From: an uncultured virus (IMG/VR IMGVR_UViG_3300016466_000860)
Taxonomy: Duplodnaviria > Heunggongvirae > Uroviricota > Caudoviricetes
Length of the DNA stretch: 64,000 nt
Virus record (IMG/VR): IMGVR_UViG_3300016466_000860
Direction: 5' to 3' (one strand)
The notes below the pieces were generated by a model. That model had not been told where the DNA came from and did no database searches. It saw only the letters and a program-made list of their open reading frames with translations. A program made the translations under genes and the position numbers. Shown here one piece after another: positions 7,166 to 44,539 of this stretch. How positions within the stretch are numbered: the first letter of the stretch is position 1; each line of letters starts with the position of its first letter.

Positions 7166-7549
7166 ATGCACAGCAATTTTATAGGCCCCCCTGATTTTGT
7201 CAACGACGACGACAATCATACCGTGTTGATCATTGAACCCGATCAAAAAACCATCTTGGATCTGGGATTGATTTGCAAAAGTGCTGGCACCGATTTCAAC
7301 GTGTATTTTTACCACCACAACTTCAATGATCTCGCTTGGTTGGAAAAAGCGTTTAACCGAGCCAATGCAGTCATTATCAATACCCATCCGACACCTTTGT
7401 CCTTGATCAAAGACCGTTTGGTCGAGCACCCTAAATCCTATATCTACGGGCCAAAAAATTTCTTAGGGGCGATAAAAAAACTAGAGTCAGCTCAGCAATA
7501 CTTTATACTCTATCTACAAAATCAACAAAAAATCGGGTTTTCCACATGA
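7166..7549 (+). CDS. Hypothetical protein
   Basis: ORF abutting upstream stop. Confidence 0.7.
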   Translation: MHSNFIGPPDFVNDDDNHTVLIIEPDQKTILDLGLICKSAGTDFNVYFYHHNFNDLAWLEKAFNRANAVIINTHPTPLSLIKDRLVEHPKSYIYGPKNFLGAIKKLESAQQYFILYLQNQQKIGFST

Positions 7550-7619: not shown

Positions 7620-7868
7620 ATGACATATCAACGAGACAATAATCGAAAACTAATGGGCAGTACTGTTTTTGTGGGGGCCGACGGCAACGTCGAGAAAGCC
7701 CTGCGGAAATTCAAAAAGAAAATACAAGAAAGCGGAAAATTGCAAGAACTCCGTGATCGCGAAAGCTACGAAAAGCCCAATGTCACACGCAAAAAAAAGA
7801 AAGCTGCCGCTAAAAATCGTTGGCGTAAAACACTGGCGCAACAGGCTTTGCCCAAGCGACTTTACTGA
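7620..7868 (+). CDS. rpsU: Ribosomal protein bS21
   Basis: NVEKALRKFKKK...ELRDRESYEKPNVTRKKKKAAA signature. Confidence 0.92.
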   Translation: MTYQRDNNRKLMGSTVFVGADGNVEKALRKFKKKIQESGKLQELRDRESYEKPNVTRKKKKAAAKNRWRKTLAQQALPKRLY

Positions 7869-8782: not shown

Positions 8783-9112
8783 TTGAAGATCAACATGACA
8801 GATACCAAGACCGAAGCCACCGTGAAACCCCGGATTGATCCAGACCTCTCAATCAAAGAGCCGCCCTTGTTCCGGGTGATCTATATCAATGATGAAACTA
8901 CTACCGTTGAATTTGTGATAGAGACTCTCCGATCGATATTTGATTACAGCGAAGAGCAGGCCGGAGAAATCACGATAAAAATACACAAAGATGGTTCTGC
9001 TGTGGTAGCAGTATTACCATTTGAAATCGCCGAACAAAAAGGCATAGAAGTCACCGTGCTCGCCCGCAACAACGGGTTTCCTTTACAAGTCAAGCTCGAA
9101 GCCGAACAATGA
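8783..9112 (+). CDS. clpS: ATP-dependent Clp protease adaptor ClpS
   Basis: PPLFRVIYINDETTTVEFV...IHKDGSAVV...EIAEQK...FPLQVKLE; start likely ATG 8795. Confidence 0.92.
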   Translation: MKINMTDTKTEATVKPRIDPDLSIKEPPLFRVIYINDETTTVEFVIETLRSIFDYSEEQAGEITIKIHKDGSAVVAVLPFEIAEQKGIEVTVLARNNGFPLQVKLEAEQ

Positions 9113-11765: not shown

Positions 11766-12473
11766 TTGTTAGAATTACTATTGGTATTGATAATCACACA
11801 CGTCACCATAGCAAGTGTTACCATCTATTTGCATAGATGCCAAGCGCATCGAGCAGTCGAATTACATCCAGCTGTTAGTCATTTCATGCGTTTTTGGTTG
11901 TGGATCACCACCGGAATGATCACCCGGGAATGGGTAGCCGTGCATCGCAAACACCATCAAGCCTGTGAGACACATCAGGACCCGCATAGTCCGCAAGTAC
12001 ACGGTATTCTTCGAGTATTGTTCGGGGGAGCCTGGTTATATGCCAATGCCACCAAGAATCGCAGGATGATCGAACAGTACGGCAAGGGCACACCTGATGA
12101 CTGGATGGAGCAAAATGTCTATACACGCTACCCCAACATGGGCTATCTCATCCTATTGGTGACCCTCACCTTGGCATTCAATGGCTGGGGCATAGTGATG
12201 TGGCTGACTACTGTGGCGTGGATTCCTTTCTGGGCTGCTGGCGTGATCAATGGTGTGGGACATTGGTGGGGCTATCGCAACACCAACACCAAGGATTGCA
12301 GTCGTAATATCGTGCCATGGGGTATCATAGTGGGCGGAGAAGAACTGCACAATAATCACCACAAGAGTCCGGCATCGGCCAAACTCAGCGATCGTTGGTG
12401 GGAGTTTGACATAGGTTGGCTATATATCAGAGTACTAGAGATCGTGGGCCTTGCCCGAGTTAAGATCCGATAA
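11766..12473 (+). CDS. desA: Fatty acid (acyl-CoA delta-9-like) desaturase
   Basis: His boxes HRCQAH, HRKHH, HNNHH; WWEFDIGW. Confidence 0.9.
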   Translation: MLELLLVLIITHVTIASVTIYLHRCQAHRAVELHPAVSHFMRFWLWITTGMITREWVAVHRKHHQACETHQDPHSPQVHGILRVLFGGAWLYANATKNRRMIEQYGKGTPDDWMEQNVYTRYPNMGYLILLVTLTLAFNGWGIVMWLTTVAWIPFWAAGVINGVGHWWGYRNTNTKDCSRNIVPWGIIVGGEELHNNHHKSPASAKLSDRWWEFDIGWLYIRVLEIVGLARVKIR

Positions 12474-12570
12474 GAACACACCTTAGGACCGGTATTAAGT
12501 TACCGAAAGTGTGCGCCGGCTGCTGGCGCGGGCAAAGCGATTCGCTACCGTGGAGCTCGGAAGTGAGCTA
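12474..12570. ncRNA. Candidate structured ncRNA made of rRNA-like motifs (strand unresolved)
   Basis: Between convergent genes; several hairpins; minus strand contains GCCAGCAGCCG, GGTAGCGAA and CGGTCCTAAGGT, identical to conserved 16S/23S segments. Confidence 0.55.
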
Positions 12571-13752
12571 TCAATAAGTTAGAATTTTATATAATTTTTG
12601 ATACTGGTTTGCAGAAACAGAAATCCCCGACCAATTCAAGGCCGGTTTTATGTTATCGATGAATTCTTGAGCAACGATATGTTTGAGATCATAATAAAAA
12701 TGATTCCAGTTGTGCTCTAGGATTGGTAACATGTCTTTGACGATTTCAGTTCGTTGTCGGTCAGATAGTCTAGAAAGATCCTCTAATATTTTGACTACCG
12801 CTCCAACCCTTTCTCCAGGATCGGTGATATCGTCGTAGCCTTCATCCCAATAATCTCCGAATGTTTTGAATCCGTAGTCTCGAAAATATTTTAAATTCCC
12901 TACCCCACCCAATAAGAGAAACGGTTGTTTGCAGACAATGGGTTTGAATATTTTTTCAGTGAGGTGTAGTTTATTGGGATAGAAAACAGTCTCTGTGACT
13001 ATTTGGACAAACGCACGTTGGGAGTTGGGTATATCAATGGTGGTGCTCAATGCGCCATGTGGTTCCTGGGTATCGATATATAAATCAGTGAACTTGTGTT
13101 TGTGCCGTTGGAAAATATCGTGGCTGTCCTGAGTATAATCCGTGTTCTGTAACACAATATCTTCTAGATCGTTTAAACCCGGATGTTTGAAACTAATAAG
13201 TCCCCGACGAAATAAATCTTTTTCGTGTATCCTTGACAAAAAATCAATCCTATGAGCACGTCGGGGATTCACAATGTGTTGATAGCTGACAAATAAATAC
13301 TCATGGCTAGTCTGTACGTCGATATTAATTTTCCAATAGTTTCTATACCAATCAATCGCAGCAGCGGCATGAAAAAAATAGTAAATACTCTTAAATCCAA
13401 TGAAATCTCTGAATGAATCAAATGCCGGCGATTTTTCGCTGGTAACAACGAAACGATCATCATACGTCTCATTGAGCCAACTCAAATCGACTATGTTTTT
13501 ATCTTCGGATGTGAGTGGTGGGTTTTTCGAAAAATTGATCATCTGTCTAAACAATTTTCCGTCCAATGGTTCCTGATCAAAAAATGTGATCACCCTTGAC
13601 GTGGATCGAGGCTGTGGCAAAGGACCCGATATTTTTGTAAACTGATAAAATGGCAACCTAGAAAAAAATTTATCATTGACGTATGTCTCGAAGTTTAGAT
13701 CTTTGAGAAATCCATTATAGATATTTCTGTACCAATAATTAACGGAGTCCAT
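12571..13752 (-). CDS. Glycosyltransferase-like phage protein
   Basis: IVTET...LTEKIFKPI...QPFLLLG...YFRDYGFKTF...WDEGYD motif. Confidence 0.6.
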   Translation of the reverse strand: MDSVNYWYRNIYNGFLKDLNFETYVNDKFFSRLPFYQFTKISGPLPQPRSTSRVITFFDQEPLDGKLFRQMINFSKNPPLTSEDKNIVDLSWLNETYDDRFVVTSEKSPAFDSFRDFIGFKSIYYFFHAAAAIDWYRNYWKINIDVQTSHEYLFVSYQHIVNPRRAHRIDFLSRIHEKDLFRRGLISFKHPGLNDLEDIVLQNTDYTQDSHDIFQRHKHKFTDLYIDTQEPHGALSTTIDIPNSQRAFVQIVTETVFYPNKLHLTEKIFKPIVCKQPFLLLGGVGNLKYFRDYGFKTFGDYWDEGYDDITDPGERVGAVVKILEDLSRLSDRQRTEIVKDMLPILEHNWNHFYYDLKHIVAQEFIDNIKPALNWSGISVSANQYQKLYKILTY

Positions 13753-22190: not shown

Positions 22191-22291
22191 ATCACCCAGA
22201 GTACTGGCTCCAAAATATGTTGGTCTGATGCTTGATCTGCTATATAATAGTAAATCATAGCACCAGACCAACTTTCATTTCAACGGATAAA

Positions 22292-22873
22292 ATGCCACAA
22301 GACAACTACAATGACGTACCTGATTTAAGTACGCAAGATGCAGGAATCTATGTGCTCATGGGCGACATCAACGAAGAAAATGTCAAACCCGTGATTGAGT
22401 GGATCCTGATCGAAAATCACGTACAAAAAATTAAGAAAAAAGAGCTGATATTAATGATTTGCTCAGACGGTGGATCGGTGGTAGATGGCTTTGCACTTAT
22501 CGATGTCATGAACGCCAGCAGTATTCCCATCAAGACCGTGGGCCTGGGCTGTATCGCTTCCTGTGGGCTTTTAATCTTTTTGGCTGGGGCACAAGGACGC
22601 AGGGTACTCACGCCTAACACCAGCATACTCAGTCATCAATTCAGCTGGGGGACCACGGGCAAAGAACACGAATTGTTTGCTGTGGTCAAAGAGTATGAAC
22701 TCACGCAAGAGCGCATGCTCAACCACTATCGTGTCTGTACCAACTTGAATGACGAGCAGATTCGCAAACATCTATTACCACCACACGATGTCTATCTCAG
22801 TGCTTCTGAAGCGTTGAAACTGGGTTTGTGCGATCATATCGCAGAAGTCCACAAGCGCCGGACTCGTAAATAA
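22292..22873 (+). CDS. clpP: ClpP-like protease (divergent copy)
   Basis: ICSDGG, GCIASCG (Ser), LSHQF (His), DVYLSASEALKLGLCD. Confidence 0.85.
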   Translation: MPQDNYNDVPDLSTQDAGIYVLMGDINEENVKPVIEWILIENHVQKIKKKELILMICSDGGSVVDGFALIDVMNASSIPIKTVGLGCIASCGLLIFLAGAQGRRVLTPNTSILSHQFSWGTTGKEHELFAVVKEYELTQERMLNHYRVCTNLNDEQIRKHLLPPHDVYLSASEALKLGLCDHIAEVHKRRTRK

Positions 22874-24010
22874 ATGACCTTTTGCCACCACCCCTGGGTG
22901 GGGCTCGATATCAGCCCGCAAGGTGACTTTAAACCTTGTTGCAAGTATAATCGTACCATTGCCCACGATCTCAAAAGTTACTTGGCCAGCGACGAACTGG
23001 CCGAGCTCAAGGCGGCCTTTGAGCGAGGTGAACAACCCGCAGGATGCGAGAGGTGTTGGCGTGACGAAGCGGCTGGATTACCCAGTAAACGAGAACTAGA
23101 CTGGGAATACGTCTTCAATAAAATCGAACCCGATCACGATTACATCGCGGTAATCAGCATGCCATTTGGTAACACCTGCAATCTCGCCTGCAGGATCTGT
23201 GGCAGCCATGCTTCCAGTCGTTGGGGGCAGGAGAGTCGAAAGCTGTCAGTTAACTTTCCCGAAATCAAAATCTACGAGCATCAACGCTACTATCGTGATG
23301 ATGGCTATATGCGGCACATCAAGGCACTACTGCAACGTGTCAAACACATTGAGTTTCCGGGCGGAGAGCCTTTTCTAGCAGGTAAAGAACAACATATCAG
23401 TTTCCTCGATCACATCATTGCCAATGACAGCAAAGATGTCAGCCTACACTACATCACCAATGGTACCCAGATGCCCTGTGCTGAGTTATTGGAACGATGG
23501 AGTCAGTTTAAAAAAGTTGACTTACAAATCAGCATCGACGGCATTTATGGAGTATTTGAATACAATCGATGGCCAGCCAATTGGGAAACGGTCTACATGA
23601 ACGTCAAATACTTCAATGATGGCCTGCGTTCTGTTTTGCCCAACTTGCAGATCAGCATCAGTCATAGTGTCAGTGTGTTTACTGTCTGGCACTTACAAGA
23701 GTTTGTGGAATGGTGCCGACGAGAAGGATTACCCGATCCTTATTTGGGGTTGGTTAGCCGGCCCGAACATTACTCTGTAACGGTATTGCCTTGGGAAGCC
23801 AAACAAGCCATCACTGAAAGATCTTGCGATCCCATATTGAAACCAGTTTTGGATGCCATGTGGGCAGAAGACCATACGGACAGGCTTGACAAAATGATGC
23901 GTTATGTTAAAATATTAGACAAGCACCGGGAGCAGAGTTTTCCCAAGATGTTTCCTGAATTATATCAACTAATGGGTGAAAAATGCCACACTTTGTACCA
24001 ACTGTATTAG
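22874..24010 (+). CDS. Radical SAM protein with twitch/SPASM domain
   Basis: CNLACRIC (CxxxCxxC), GGEPF, TNGT, SIDG; N-terminal C..PW...PCC. Confidence 0.88.
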
Positions 24011-24579
24011 AAAAGACCTCGCACGGTGAACGTGCCTATGATATCTACAGCCGCTTGCTCAAAGAGCGCATAGTGATACTTGACACCGATGTCAATGAAC
24101 ATTCGGCTTCGTTGCTGGTGGCACAGATGCTGTTCCTGGAAGCCGAAGACCCCAATGCCGACATACTTTTTTACATCAACAGCCCCGGCGGCAATATCAC
24201 CGACGGCATGGCCATCTATGACACCATGCAGTTCATCAAGCCCGATGTATCAACTATAGTAATGGGACAAGCTTGTTCCATGGGTTCGTTGTTGGCCACT
24301 GCTGGTGCTCCTGGCAAGCGACTCATGCTGCCACATGCCAGACACATGATACACCAGCCCTTGGGTGGTGCTCGCGGCCAGGCCACCGACATGATGATTC
24401 AGGTTGAGGAAATCATGCGCATGAAACGCTTCCTAACTGAGCTTTATGTCAAACACAACAGCATCGGCAAGACCTACGAAGAGTTTGTGCCCGATATGGA
24501 GCGCGACAATTTCATGACCGCTGAACAGAGTCTGGCCTATGGGTTAATCGACCGCATCATTGAGCGCCGAGAATCATGA
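23983..24579 (+). CDS. clpP: ATP-dependent Clp protease proteolytic subunit
   Basis: [40 protein letters not shown]. Confidence 0.95.
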
Positions 24580-38922: not shown

Positions 38923-39126
38923 ATGCTATACCGTTTCCACGATCGTATGTTTGAGCCACCCTACAAACAGTATTATGAGGCCTATCGGGGTCATGTGTTC
39001 CGTATCTGCCATTATCACCCCGAGGATGAGATGCAATTGCATGTATGTTTGACCTGCGACGACGATCCCGCAGTTGAAGTCAAAGGCTACGTTCATTTAA
39101 CGGATCTAGTAGCAGTGAATAAATAA
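38923..39126 (+). CDS. Hypothetical protein
   Basis: Downstream of TTGACA-18-TACAAT. Confidence 0.6.
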   Translation: MLYRFHDRMFEPPYKQYYEAYRGHVFRICHYHPEDEMQLHVCLTCDDDPAVEVKGYVHLTDLVAVNK

Positions 39127-39129
39127 CAT

Positions 39130-39422
39130 TATCGCTGTATGAAGCGAAGCAAAATGTGTTCTGGACGCGGGTTCGATTCCCGCCCGGTCCACCAAAAGTA
39201 TATTACGACAAATAAAGTGTGTAGCGTGCTATACCAAGTAATATACTTCTGATGGGCCGGACCTGGTTTCGACAGGGCAAGGAGTAGCCGAGTGGACAGC
39301 GGGGTAGGCGATGACCCTAAATCAAGCAAATCTAGTAGACGCAAACGACTCTACATTCGCTATGGCCGCTTAAGGCCTAGCTGAGGTTTTTCCGGTTCTT
39401 CCTTATCACCCAAAGAACCGGC
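39130..39422 (+). ncRNA. ssrA: Circularly permuted (two-piece) tmRNA; tag ANDSTFAMAA
   Basis: T-arm+acceptor (GCGGGTTCGATTCCCGCCCGGTCCACCA, ends 39194) precedes 5' piece GGGCCGGA..TTTCGAC (39254); G3:U70 pair; tag frame 39341-39373; outer ends approximate. Confidence 0.92.
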
Positions 39423-39439
39423 CTAATTCAACGATAATT

Positions 39440-40366
39440 ATGCGACCCGAATTCGATCTTGACCTCACCAATCCCAAGGGACTTGGTATAGAAACAGCCG
39501 ATCCCAACCTCCCTTCAGATCACGGCGAACACCTCACCGATCGAGATATTGAAAAACTAAAATCTTACGTTCCCGGACTTGATGTTTTAACGATACCGGG
39601 AACGATAAGACAGCACCGTTATCTAGCAAGAATACGGGAAGGTAACCAGTCCACTGTGATATTCATACCCGGAGGTATAGGATGGCTGTACTCGGTTGAT
39701 GCCGAACACTCATTGTCTGGTTTCGTTTATCCATTGACCTTGTTGTCCTCGTGGCCCGATGATATAAATTTAGTGATAGTTGACATGGATCATGACTTGG
39801 GCTGGTTATGGGCATCAAAATCTCAGTTCCGATTACAAAATGTCGACCTAGACAGATATCGGTATCTCTTGACCAAAGATTTGTTTGATGATCCCTATAG
39901 TAAAAAAATCATTGCGGCGTTTCATGATTTGCAATTGATGATAAAATATATCAACGATACGACAAAAACAAAAATCTGGTTGGCCGGTCATTGTAACTCC
40001 TGTGACATGCTGGCTAGGTTCTACGATTTTTCGTTGCATCGTGATCTGATACATGGATTGATTTTTACCAGCCCGTTCTGGATAAAATATTGGCATAAGC
40101 CCAGGGATAAAATCACGTATTTTAAAACACCAGTGAGTGTACCTTTGTTGGTGGTACAACATCGGCACGACAGGAATCGTGGTTGCCACGCCGACATAGC
40201 GAACAAGATAATCGAAGACTCGAAGTCGGCTCACACCGATTACATCGAACTAGATGGCGGGATAGATCAAGGACTTCCGCATTTTTCCATGGGGCATCAT
40301 GGATTCCGTGATATTGAATCACAGCTGACAATGTCGATTCAAAGCTTCGTCAAAAAACACGACTAA
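39440..40366 (+). CDS. Alpha/beta-hydrolase-fold protein (GHCNS elbow)
   Basis: IFIPGG, IWLAGHCNS, PLLVVQHRHD, GHHGFRDIE. Confidence 0.7.
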   Translation: MRPEFDLDLTNPKGLGIETADPNLPSDHGEHLTDRDIEKLKSYVPGLDVLTIPGTIRQHRYLARIREGNQSTVIFIPGGIGWLYSVDAEHSLSGFVYPLTLLSSWPDDINLVIVDMDHDLGWLWASKSQFRLQNVDLDRYRYLLTKDLFDDPYSKKIIAAFHDLQLMIKYINDTTKTKIWLAGHCNSCDMLARFYDFSLHRDLIHGLIFTSPFWIKYWHKPRDKITYFKTPVSVPLLVVQHRHDRNRGCHADIANKIIEDSKSAHTDYIELDGGIDQGLPHFSMGHHGFRDIESQLTMSIQSFVKKHD

Positions 40367-41348: not shown

Positions 41349-42656
41349 GTGATCACTTTATTTCTAGTCGCCGGTGCCGGTCTACTCACTGGTGTATTAC
41401 TGGGCTTGTTTTCTGTGTTCCCCATCTATTTTGCCGGGTTTTTAGTCTATGCTTTCCATGGTATCTGGAGTCCGGAACTGCTCTTGGTTTTTTGGATGAC
41501 AGCGGCCATTGGTAGCCAATTTTTTGGTTCGGTTAGTACTATCACCTTGGGTATACCCGGCGAGTCATCGGCTTTAGTCTATATGCGAGATCTCAAATCA
41601 ATGACCTTAGATGATCGCAATCGTTTACTTTATCATACAGCCAAAGGTAGTCTTTTTGCAGGGATAATGGCACTGGCGGTGGTATGGCTCATGTATCACT
41701 GGTTGGGATCAAAAGCCAACATGTTGGCCAGCGTAGATTTCACCTTGGCGGTTTTTGCGATAGTAATAGCTTTGTTTGCTGCCACAGATCGCAGACCGTT
41801 GATCGCATTGTGCCTGCTGACTGTTGGCATCATGCTGGGACCTAACAATAACTATGCTTTGCCCGAATGGTGGTACAGGATACAACAGTTGTTTGAAAAC
41901 ACTTCGTTCTTTCTCTTGATTGTCAGCCTGATGATCTTGCCTGATCTCATTTTCGATCGATTATCTTCAAACGACACGATCAGGCAAAAATATGTGGCCA
42001 AGGACAGCGATGATCGTACCTGGTGGACCATCATCAAAAGTACAGCGATTGGAATCTTCGCTGGCAGCGTGCCTGGGCCTGCTGCCGAAACAGCCAGTGC
42101 CGCGGCCTATCATGCACACCGCCGTCGGGGAGTGTTCCAACAGATAGTGGCCGCCGAGACAGCTAACAACCCCGGCGTGGTCATGATGTTCTTGCCATTC
42201 TTCGTTATGGCTTTACCCATAACAGCGTCGTCGTTGATTATCAGCAATGTCATGGATATCAAAAACATAGACATCGTGGAGTTCGCCAAAGGAAACAGTC
42301 AGTTCTTTCCGGAGCTCGCTGTTTTTGATGTGTTAATGATCGTGGCGGCCATGGCCACGGTCTTTTATTTCTTGCTCAGCACACGTTTTATCGATTTTTA
42401 TGTAGCCATAGTCAAACGGCTGTACGGACAGAGCCGATGGTTGTTGGCTTTGCTGATCACGGGCATGATCGCAGCCGATATGTACTTCAATGAAACTACT
42501 GCAATTATCTATGCGGCCTTGTTGATTTTTTTTACTGCGGTCGGCATGTCGATTAAATACTTCAAAGCAAATCCAATACTGCTGATTTTCGGGGTCATGT
42601 TCGGCGACAAACTGATTTGGTCCCTGATGCAATTTTATACCATACATTTTCTATAA
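41349..42656 (+). CDS. tctA: Tripartite tricarboxylate transporter TctA-like permease
   Basis: FFGSVSTITLGIPGE, GSVPG, AAETANN; many TM helices. Confidence 0.8.
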   Translation: MITLFLVAGAGLLTGVLLGLFSVFPIYFAGFLVYAFHGIWSPELLLVFWMTAAIGSQFFGSVSTITLGIPGESSALVYMRDLKSMTLDDRNRLLYHTAKGSLFAGIMALAVVWLMYHWLGSKANMLASVDFTLAVFAIVIALFAATDRRPLIALCLLTVGIMLGPNNNYALPEWWYRIQQLFENTSFFLLIVSLMILPDLIFDRLSSNDTIRQKYVAKDSDDRTWWTIIKSTAIGIFAGSVPGPAAETASAAAYHAHRRRGVFQQIVAAETANNPGVVMMFLPFFVMALPITASSLIISNVMDIKNIDIVEFAKGNSQFFPELAVFDVLMIVAAMATVFYFLLSTRFIDFYVAIVKRLYGQSRWLLALLITGMIAADMYFNETTAIIYAALLIFFTAVGMSIKYFKANPILLIFGVMFGDKLIWSLMQFYTIHFL

Positions 42657-43597: not shown

Positions 43598-44539
43598 TTA
43601 GGAATTCTTGATCTTGGCTACGAGATCGGCGTATTCGCCAAACTGCTCATAAACAGGTTGCACAGCAGCCTTGAATTCGTTGATGGCTTCGTTGCTCCAC
43701 TCAACAACTTCAATACCTTCGCTGAGAGCACGCTGTTTGGCAGCGGCACCGTCGATGAGGCTTTCTTTTCTCTCTTCGGTGGCAGCGATCTGTGCGCATT
43801 CTTTGATGACATTTCGTTGCTCTTCGGTGAGTATATTCCATACTTTGCTGCTGATAACGATGCTGGTCAGGAACAATGCGTGTTCGGTGTTGGCAACTGT
43901 GTTTGTCACAGTGTTCACAGAACTACGGAAATAACGTGGGAACACGTTTTCTCCGCCTTCGCACTCGCCGGCAGCAACAGATTCAGCAAAGCCATCCACA
44001 CCCATTGCTAATGGCTCAGCACCAATGGCACGGAAAGTGGCTTCCGACACTGGGCTCTTACCGCAACGCAGAGTCTGGCCTTCGAGATCTTTGATGCTCT
44101 CGGCATTTTTGTTGACAGCCATCATTTTGTAGCCGCCTGAGTATGTGAATGCTAGGCCGCGGGCACCCGACGTCTCGGACAGACCCGACAGCAATTTTTT
44201 ACCAATTTCGCCATCCAGCACTCGTGTAGCATGATCGTGATCACGGAACAGGAACGGAAGATCCAACGCAAAGAAATCTTTGTTGAGATGTCCGAGCACT
44301 GTAGAATAAGTTTGGCTCATGTGGATTTCGCCACTGGCCACTTTTTTCATGACTCCGAGATTTCCGATTTCTACGCCATTGTTGTACTTTTTCTCCCACT
44401 CATCTTTGCCCATAACTTCAACTTCAATGGCGCCATTTGTACGCTCATTGATGGCTTTGCAGAATGCATTGGCAGAACGCAGGAACAAGTCATATGGAAT
44501 ATGAGCAAGTACCCAGCGTAATTTCAAAGGTTGTGTCAT
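43598..44539 (-). CDS. dctP: TRAP transporter substrate-binding protein DctP-like
   Basis: F...INERTNGAIEVEV, LDLPFLFRD.DH, DLEGQTLR; no signal peptide. Confidence 0.85.
   Translation of the reverse strand: MTQPLKLRWVLAHIPYDLFLRSANAFCKAINERTNGAIEVEVMGKDEWEKKYNNGVEIGNLGVMKKVASGEIHMSQTYSTVLGHLNKDFFALDLPFLFRDHDHATRVLDGEIGKKLLSGLSETSGARGLAFTYSGGYKMMAVNKNAESIKDLEGQTLRCGKSPVSEATFRAIGAEPLAMGVDGFAESVAAGECEGGENVFPRYFRSSVNTVTNTVANTEHALFLTSIVISSKVWNILTEEQRNVIKECAQIAATEERKESLIDGAAAKQRALSEGIEVVEWSNEAINEFKAAVQPVYEQFGEYADLVAKIKNS

Follow-up and report, generated by a model that had tools for sequence, protein, structure and literature searches.

A widespread family of structured RNAs in large aquatic phages with invariant unpaired segments probably complementary to the helix 69 region of 23S rRNA

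Base-pairing small RNAs (sRNAs), whether trans-encoded or derived from 3′ UTRs, are found in bacteria and phages as short structured RNAs whose scaffold holds single-stranded seeds for pairing with a target mRNA. In archaea and eukaryotes, box C/D and H/ACA snoRNAs are structured RNAs with a bipartite antisense part directed at a conserved stretch of rRNA. The leaders of ribosomal-protein mRNAs, located upstream of r-protein operons, mimic rRNA in the rRNA sense. In the caliciviruses, which infect eukaryotes, the TURBS motif of the mRNA is complementary to 18S rRNA and tethers the post-termination ribosome; it lies upstream of a stop-restart site. Finally, a synthetic PNA directed against helix 69 (H69) of E. 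coli 23S rRNA is reported to block translation and growth (PMC12828698), which would make this site a vulnerable one.

Here we describe a 97-base element that is one member of an unannotated, widespread family of structured RNAs, approximately 95-105 nt long, in large aquatic phages. The feature is real, the family is without annotation and its relation to rRNA is well supported; its function we infer from sequence comparison. In how it would work, the element comes closest to a base-pairing small RNA or a guide RNA for rRNA, yet it fits neither the snoRNAs nor the classical terminator-ended sRNAs. With the base-pairing sRNAs it shares its short structured form, its position behind a coding gene and scaffold-held, conserved single-stranded seeds flanked by covarying helices, for which pairing is proposed with a conserved and widespread target to which they are complementary in silico. 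It differs from them in that the proposed target is rRNA, in having two seeds that abut on the target or a single 20-nt loop, in its pseudoknotted scaffold, in the absence of a usual terminator hairpin from a scan of the window, and in being a predicted transcript. The snoRNAs are likewise structured RNAs with a bipartite antisense part for a conserved rRNA stretch, but no Rfam snoRNA model matches the element, no conserved gene for a partner protein lies nearby (its neighbor proteins are diverse), its arms abut without an unpaired target base, and it occurs in phages of bacteria. It has in common with the ribosomal-protein leaders that a non-ribosomal RNA carries rRNA-like sequence or structure; unlike them, it has diverse neighbors, does not lie in the 5′ UTR of a ribosomal-protein gene (bS21 is 4.6 kb off) and is likely read from the strand antisense to rRNA. 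TURBS resembles it as an mRNA element near a stop codon with complementarity to rRNA, whereas TURBS addresses the small-subunit rRNA from upstream of its stop-restart site and the element is proposed to address 23S rRNA from downstream of a stop codon. Complementarity to H69 is common to the PNA and the element; the former is a man-made short oligomer, the latter a natural, folded and evolutionarily conserved RNA whose pairing effect is only predicted. A riboswitch or other cis-regulatory leader fits poorly, given 148 neighbor proteins that fall into 69 clusters and a downstream gene that is convergent in the window. Searches of the full-text literature turned up no description of a phage RNA that mimics rRNA or is antisense to it. 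In a catalog of candidate structured RNAs of viruses (PMC10690425) the loop motif occurs 0 times in six supplementary files; the family may stand unnamed in files 1, 2 and 4.

The element fills the spacer 12474-12570 between the ends of two convergent genes, from the stop of a plus-strand desaturase gene to that of a minus-strand ORF of 393 aa, in a 64,000-nt stretch of viral DNA (hereafter the window). The window looks like part of the genome of a large aquatic phage, with 81 ORFs on the plus strand and 23 on the minus strand and genes for bS21, ClpS, two ClpP, a radical-SAM protein, UvdE, an NS endonuclease, DNA ligase, TctA, DctP, tmRNA and one tRNA. The DNA sequencing runs that contain the element region are aquatic, lake and sediment metagenomes. 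The relevant genes are as follows:

7620-7868, plus strand: bS21 gene, 4.6 kb from the element
8783-9112, plus strand: gene for the ClpS adaptor
11766-12473, plus strand: fatty-acid desaturase gene (Pfam FA_desaturase, E = 1.6e-11)
12471-12473, plus strand: stop codon TAA of the desaturase gene, 3 nt 5′ of helix P5
12571-13752, minus strand: 393-aa ORF with no Pfam match
22232-22873 and 23983-24579, plus strand: genes for two ClpP-like proteases, with the radical-SAM gene in between
39060-39464, plus strand: tmRNA gene (Rfam: beta_tmRNA, 133.8 bits; permuted tmRNA, 134.9 bits)
41349-42656, plus strand: TctA gene, a transporter type unusual for a phage
43598-44539, minus strand: gene for a DctP-type solute-binding protein, also a transporter type unusual for a phage

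The joint presence of bS21 and tmRNA in the window, pointed out in a preliminary description of this DNA, is correct. A link between bS21 and the RNA family is not supported, bS21 being present in one of five other large records, and no tRNA was found near the element in 60 loci; a single tmRNA was found, in contig L205, about 1.1 kb from that contig's copy of the RNA. The tag peptide encoded by the tmRNA of the window is ANDSTFAMAA (ARAGORN, marked with an asterisk). The 393-aa ORF, one of the few minus-strand genes of the window, has relatives at 29-48% identity that are common among large viral contigs. Because its homolog in contig L070/L004 sits about 3.7 kb from the desaturase gene, in the window it appears to have been inserted behind the RNA element. 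The ORF does not adjoin the element in L070, and the element is thus not tied to the 12571-13752 gene, of whose transcript it was earlier suggested to form the 3′ end. The word GATAAATA, named earlier along with such a minus-strand transcript, is not enriched as a promoter word (4 found vs 1.9 expected), and a promoter scan found nothing inside the element.

According to the preliminary description, the spacer is a mosaic of several ribosomal functional centers. Against the E. coli K-12 rrnH operon, used here as the rRNA reference, all the rRNA-identical words it named are present. On the minus strand, CGGTCCTAAGGT (12491-12480) equals 23S 1920-1931 (a 12-mer), GCCAGCAGCCG (12527-12517) equals 16S 517-527 (an 11-mer, with 14/15 identical if extended to 513-527), GGTAGCGAA (12549-12541) equals 23S 1929-1937 (a 9-mer) and GTAACT equals 23S 1910-1915; two further 9-mers are shared with E. 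coli rRNA, and the 8/10 likeness to the 16S 3′ end, compared by eye, holds. In the single sequence alone, these words are not beyond chance, since both strands of the 64-kb window contain 109 maximal matches of at least 11 nt to E. coli rRNA, six places hold two such matches inside 97 nt, the summed match length of the element is reached by 994 of 127,808 sliding windows, and the fold z-scores are weak and not significant (-1.85 for the minus strand, -1.46 for the plus strand). With homologs the relation does go beyond chance, because the 23S words coincide exactly with an invariant unpaired bulge and loop of the family.

Homologs were sought in 143 viral-contig loci gathered as relatives of the two flanking proteins, and comparison by blastn found the element in four other contigs. 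The copy in L066/L002 is 94.7% identical, against 84% across the surrounding 5 kb, and that in L070 is 94.6% identical next to a desaturase that is only 73% identical at the protein level; the copies in L112 and L132 are 74% and 64% identical and stand in different gene contexts. Two blocks invariant in these five sequences provided the pattern for a first family sample from viral contigs, with at least 120 matches and, among the matches listed, 99 distinct cores, 38 of which were used to build a covariance model (R1). Because this sample had been ascertained with the bulge and loop blocks themselves, a second one was anchored on pseudoknot motifs only, again in viral contigs, and gave at least 120 matches, with 116 unique rows and 105 family-like members.

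In a set of 100 loci, every locus has exactly one match to model R1. One strong copy apiece is also present in five phage records of 121-353 kb, two of which have a weak or partial second copy as well. In the window, a weak second match at 7242-7338 (plus strand; 11.1 bits, E = 0.08) overlaps the ORF 7166-7549 and is probably noise. The complete 353-kb phage genome (record G207) contains, besides a full copy, a 70-nt half copy at 76953-77022 (L301 454-523) with P4, the pseudoknot and P3 (loop ..UCGCUAC..) but without the 5′ domain and its 23S-like part, and because of this half copy the 5′ and 3′ domains may be separable modules. Among bacterial and archaeal genomes there were 36 pattern matches and four family members, all on MAG contigs: two contigs from a single Haliscomenobacter MAG, a 7.6-kb contig binned as Bifidobacterium and a weak match in a Granulosicoccaceae MAG. 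The Haliscomenobacter (Bacteroidota) members, L296 and L291, score 66.3 and 41.1 bits on contigs of 183 kb and 39 kb, and are possibly a prophage or a clue to the host.

A blastn search of the region against GenBank phages in distant mode returned no match. Of the 4227 models of Rfam 15, only tmRNA and one tRNA matched the whole window at gathering score; the region 12350-12700, searched at E up to 10, gave noise of at most 18 bits and no LSU match, and nine representatives covering all subclasses gave 0 matches at E up to 1. No known Rfam family matches the element, and a very abundant, strongly covarying phage RNA family is thus without an Rfam model.

Covariation was tested on 88 distinct aligned sequences and 24 pairs, which comprise helices P2-P6 and a 4-bp pseudoknot. 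Paired cells amount to 91.4%, versus 67.6% in shuffles, and both-side changes occur in 22 of the 24 pairs; none of 500 shuffles reaches the observed values, and controls with slid registers are 32-45% paired. The family has six covarying helices and a pseudoknot, which are laid out in the window copy as follows (helix numbers are those of the covariation test):

12469-12575, plus strand: matches covariance model R1 over its full length (108.8 bits), with no other strong copy in the 64-kb window
12477-12481, plus strand: P5 5′ strand CACAC, pairing with GTGTG at 12509-12513 (helix 1, both-side changes in 4/5 pairs)
12482-12489, plus strand: invariant 8-nt bulge CTTAGGAC between P5 and P6, complement of E. 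coli 23S 1922-1929
12490-12505, plus strand: P6 hairpin CGGTA / TTAAGT / TACCG, complement of an H69-like hairpin (helix 2, both-side changes in 5/5 pairs)
12509-12513, plus strand: P5 3′ strand GTGTG, supported by covariation
12514-12528, plus strand: P4 hairpin CGCC / GGCTGCT / GGCG (helix 3, both-side changes in 4/4 pairs)
12529-12533, plus strand: P2 5′ strand, pairing with 12555-12559 (helices 5 and 6)
12537-12551, plus strand: P3 hairpin GCG / ATTCGCTAC / CGT (helix 7), in which loop bases 12541-12548 complement E. coli 23S 1930-1937
12555-12559, plus strand: P2 3′ strand, supported by covariation
12566-12569, plus strand: pseudoknot 3′ strand AGCT, pairing with 12518-12521 in the P4 loop (helix 4, both-side changes in 3/4 pairs)

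This scaffold, made up of P2-P6 and a pseudoknot in which the P4 loop pairs with the 3′ tail, leaves two invariant stretches unpaired, namely the bulge CUUAGGAC and the 9-nt P3 loop AUUCGCUAC. The P6 hairpin is variable or absent in other subclasses, and in members of the L069 type the core itself is paired within P5. Among the hairpins proposed earlier, GCGCC/GGCGC (P4), CACAC/GUGUG (P5) and CGGUA/UACCG (P6) are borne out by covariation; AGCUC/GAGCU is not, and its bases form a pseudoknot strand and helix P2. The homologs likewise divide the proposed rRNA words, with those of 23S rRNA invariant and unpaired among covarying stems and those of the 530 loop and the anti-SD variable. The 7-nt P4 loop is the '530-loop' word on the opposite strand, and it covaries with its pseudoknot partner, GGCUGCU changing to GGGUGCU, GGCCACU or ACCCCCG with matching tails (ACCCCCG, in L069, is matched by a GGGGG tail). 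The bases behind the anti-SD likeness are not conserved in the family. Both likenesses are treated here as coincidence, and the notion of a mosaic of several functional centers gives way to a single conserved region, the H69/H70 words of 23S rRNA.

The bulge and the P3 loop are, in silico, perfect complements of the abutting halves 1922-1929 and 1930-1937 (E. coli numbering) of one universally conserved 23S segment, which over its 16 nt runs from the 3′ strand of H69 into the domain IV junction; the predicted duplex with the target amounts to -10.2 kcal/mol per arm. Of the 116 unique rows of the pseudoknot-anchored sample, among the matches listed, 82 contain the bulge word and 60 the loop word. 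When the 5′ domain was aligned locally to the entire 2904-nt 23S rRNA, the top alignment lay within 1900-1935 in 101 of the 105 family-like members, again among the matches listed. Divergent members found via flanking genes, with no motif used, align to the same region (L072 at 23S 1911-1932, L069 at 1919-1930 and L130 at 1910-1933). The 16-mer target occurs in 45/101 and 56/101 genomes in samples of two phyla, versus four matches in all for the reversed control, and the genomes without it are probably assemblies without rRNA operons. Inside the phage window, targets of the two seeds are not found beyond expectation. As judged from these alignments, the relation of the family to 23S rRNA is real, but narrower than first proposed.

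Three main architectures are distinguished by the P3 module and the 5′ domain. Class A (69 members among the matches listed) has the P3 loop of the window, with the 1930-1937 word about 50 nt off and in permuted order. Class B (21 members among the matches listed) has another P3 hairpin, complementary to rRNA in 0/21, and a 5′ domain that consists of a stem capped by a loop of about 20 nt; among the matches listed, this loop is in the median 22/24 identical, in the rRNA sense, to 23S 1910-1933. In class C (10 members among the matches listed) the P3 loop is complementary to 23S 1968-1979 in 7/10. The word CUAC, the complement of 1930-1933, occupies one of two places, the P3 loop or the position immediately 5′ of the core; it is next to the core in 11/69 members of class A and 17/21 of class B among the matches listed (Fisher p = 7e-8, a statistic that ignores relatedness). 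A fourth, small subclass (L329, L346 and L416) carries a P3 module ..AGGCCGGGAAUCCUAG.. unlike those of classes A, B and C; its best rRNA matches are in the same sense and probably due to chance. A fragment or pseudogene of an rRNA gene was considered as the origin of the likeness and rejected, given a similarity of only 11-24 nt within 23S 1905-1937, the permuted order in class A and the absence of a match to the Rfam LSU models; the preliminary description had also argued, from words that are not collinear with rRNA, against a captured rRNA fragment.

Several lines of evidence bear on the strand from which the RNA is read. Among 74 distinct contexts, 72 have a gene ending next to P5 that runs in the direction of the plus-strand reading, and in 57 both neighbors do so; in about 50 of the 72 contexts, the end of the upstream co-directional ORF varies by no more than a few nt. 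All 10 model matches in desaturase-oriented loci lie on the desaturase strand. The model alignment has 58 G·U pairs in a plus-strand reading versus 34 in a minus-strand one, and the P3 closing pair of the 88 sequences, in the plus-strand reading, is Watson-Crick in 59, G·U in 24 and A-C in two. A register-neutral count of G·U pairs (plus to minus) is mixed, with 19:32 in P5 and 25:32 in P2, mostly at terminal positions, while P3, P4 and the pseudoknot favor the plus strand. Folding energies do not separate the strands, being lower for the plus strand in 46 cases and higher in 41. We consider it highly probable, from gene arrangement and pairing patterns, that the RNA is read from the plus strand of the window, and the window copy is most likely the 3′ UTR of the desaturase transcript, co-transcribed behind the upstream gene. 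Because gene context and G·U counts favor this strand, the RNA would be antisense to helix 69/70 of 23S rRNA and not a mimic of it. The pairing of a plus-strand RNA with rRNA, which the preliminary description had offered as its second option, is what agrees best with this evidence.

The explanation we favor, though only tentatively, is that a structured phage RNA transcribed from the plus strand base-pairs with host 23S rRNA at the junction of H69 and domain IV. The conserved scaffold leaves 8 + 8 nt unpaired in class A and about 20 nt in class B, which would serve in this pairing. In mature ribosomes, 23S 1920-1937 is base-paired and located at the subunit interface, so that pairing would need an unfolded target; such a target, with this region still unfolded or exposed, could be offered by rRNA that is being made, by late pre-50S particles or by free 50S subunits. 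As a result, 50S maturation or subunit joining might be blocked, delayed or redirected, or the transcript might be tethered to the large subunit. A more specific form of this proposal, possible but more doubtful, is a dedicated antisense RNA against the universally conserved H69/domain IV junction that would act in the takeover of the host translation apparatus. Hybridization to nascent or free large-subunit rRNA would then stall 50S maturation or subunit joining, or, alternatively, pairing could mark the 23S site for cleavage, repair or modification. Since the target does not vary, a single such RNA would serve in every bacterial host. Against the proposal of rRNA pairing stand the internal pairing of the core in members of the L069 type, the class B P3 hairpin with no complement in rRNA, and the dependence of the phage itself on host ribosomes; nor was a conserved partner gene found among the 69 clusters of neighbor proteins. 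As the target sequence is identical in E. coli, the proposal should be easy to test.

The strongest competing explanation is a structured RNA that has nothing to do with rRNA pairing, such as a ligand or protein binder, a ribozyme, or an element of stability or processing at gene ends, in which the 23S likeness reflects ancestry (a captured piece of rDNA) or a shared structural motif. Aptamers and ribozymes typically have such a compact, pseudoknotted fold whose unpaired bases do not vary, the near-fixed distance to the upstream stop codon hints at a function where translation or the transcript ends, the P3 module of class B is without rRNA complement, and the second copy in the 353-kb genome consists of the 3′ domain only. 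Such an RNA appears unlikely on balance, considering that the stretch matching 23S is the most conserved part of the element, is unpaired and is kept by three architectures, that the neighbors are too diverse for a gene-specific switch, and that no Rfam aptamer or ribozyme model matches.

A minus-strand RNA in the rRNA sense, mimicking H69/H70 of 23S as a decoy for a protein, a toxin or a modification enzyme, was the reading preferred in the preliminary description, and we regard it as improbable. The rRNA-sense strand is indeed collinear with 23S 1909-1931, the register of the H69 stem is kept in many members, the register-neutral G·U counts in P5 and P2 are higher on this strand, the folding energies are compatible, and a U-rich sequence follows P5 on its 3′ side. 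However, this reading makes the RNA antisense to the gene next to it in 72 of the 74 contexts and to both neighbors in 57. It also introduces A-C mismatches into the covarying closing pair of P3 (24 of 88 sequences) and into P2 of the window itself, where a G·U pair on the plus strand becomes A-C on the minus strand. Class B does not mimic the H69 hairpin, because it lacks the 5′ strand of H69 and carries the H69-like stretch as a plain loop. We also know of no factor that recognizes single-stranded 23S 1922-1937. What stands of the preliminary description is an RNA element that is real and whose relation to rRNA is not random; the multi-center mosaic and the decoy are not supported.

An ordinary bidirectional terminator or spacer between convergent genes, with rRNA words by chance, can be set aside as very improbable, since the convergence of the genes in the window, the unexceptional k-mer density, the weak fold z-scores and a T-rich tail (at least 5/8) after the pseudoknot strand in 40/102 members are outweighed by a terminator scan without a G+C-rich hairpin and U-run anywhere within 12474-12570 (two sites lie at 12625-12645), and the reading is already contradicted by the 94.6% identity in L070 despite 73% desaturase protein identity and no convergent gene, by covariation in support of a complex fold, and by best 23S alignments in the same 35-nt region in 101/105 members among the matches listed.

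Even if pairing with rRNA should prove not to be its function, the family deserves a name and a model, being modular in construction with three P3 modules and several 5′ domains. If the RNA does pair with 23S rRNA, this would represent a new viral route to the ribosome, one that goes through RNA-RNA pairing at the central intersubunit bridge and not via a protein, and the RNA would be the bacterial world's first natural example of an RNA that targets rRNA. It would then join the translation-related genes of large phages, of which bS21, tmRNA and a tRNA are all encoded in the window, and would show by a case from nature that antisense antibacterials against helix 69 can work in principle.
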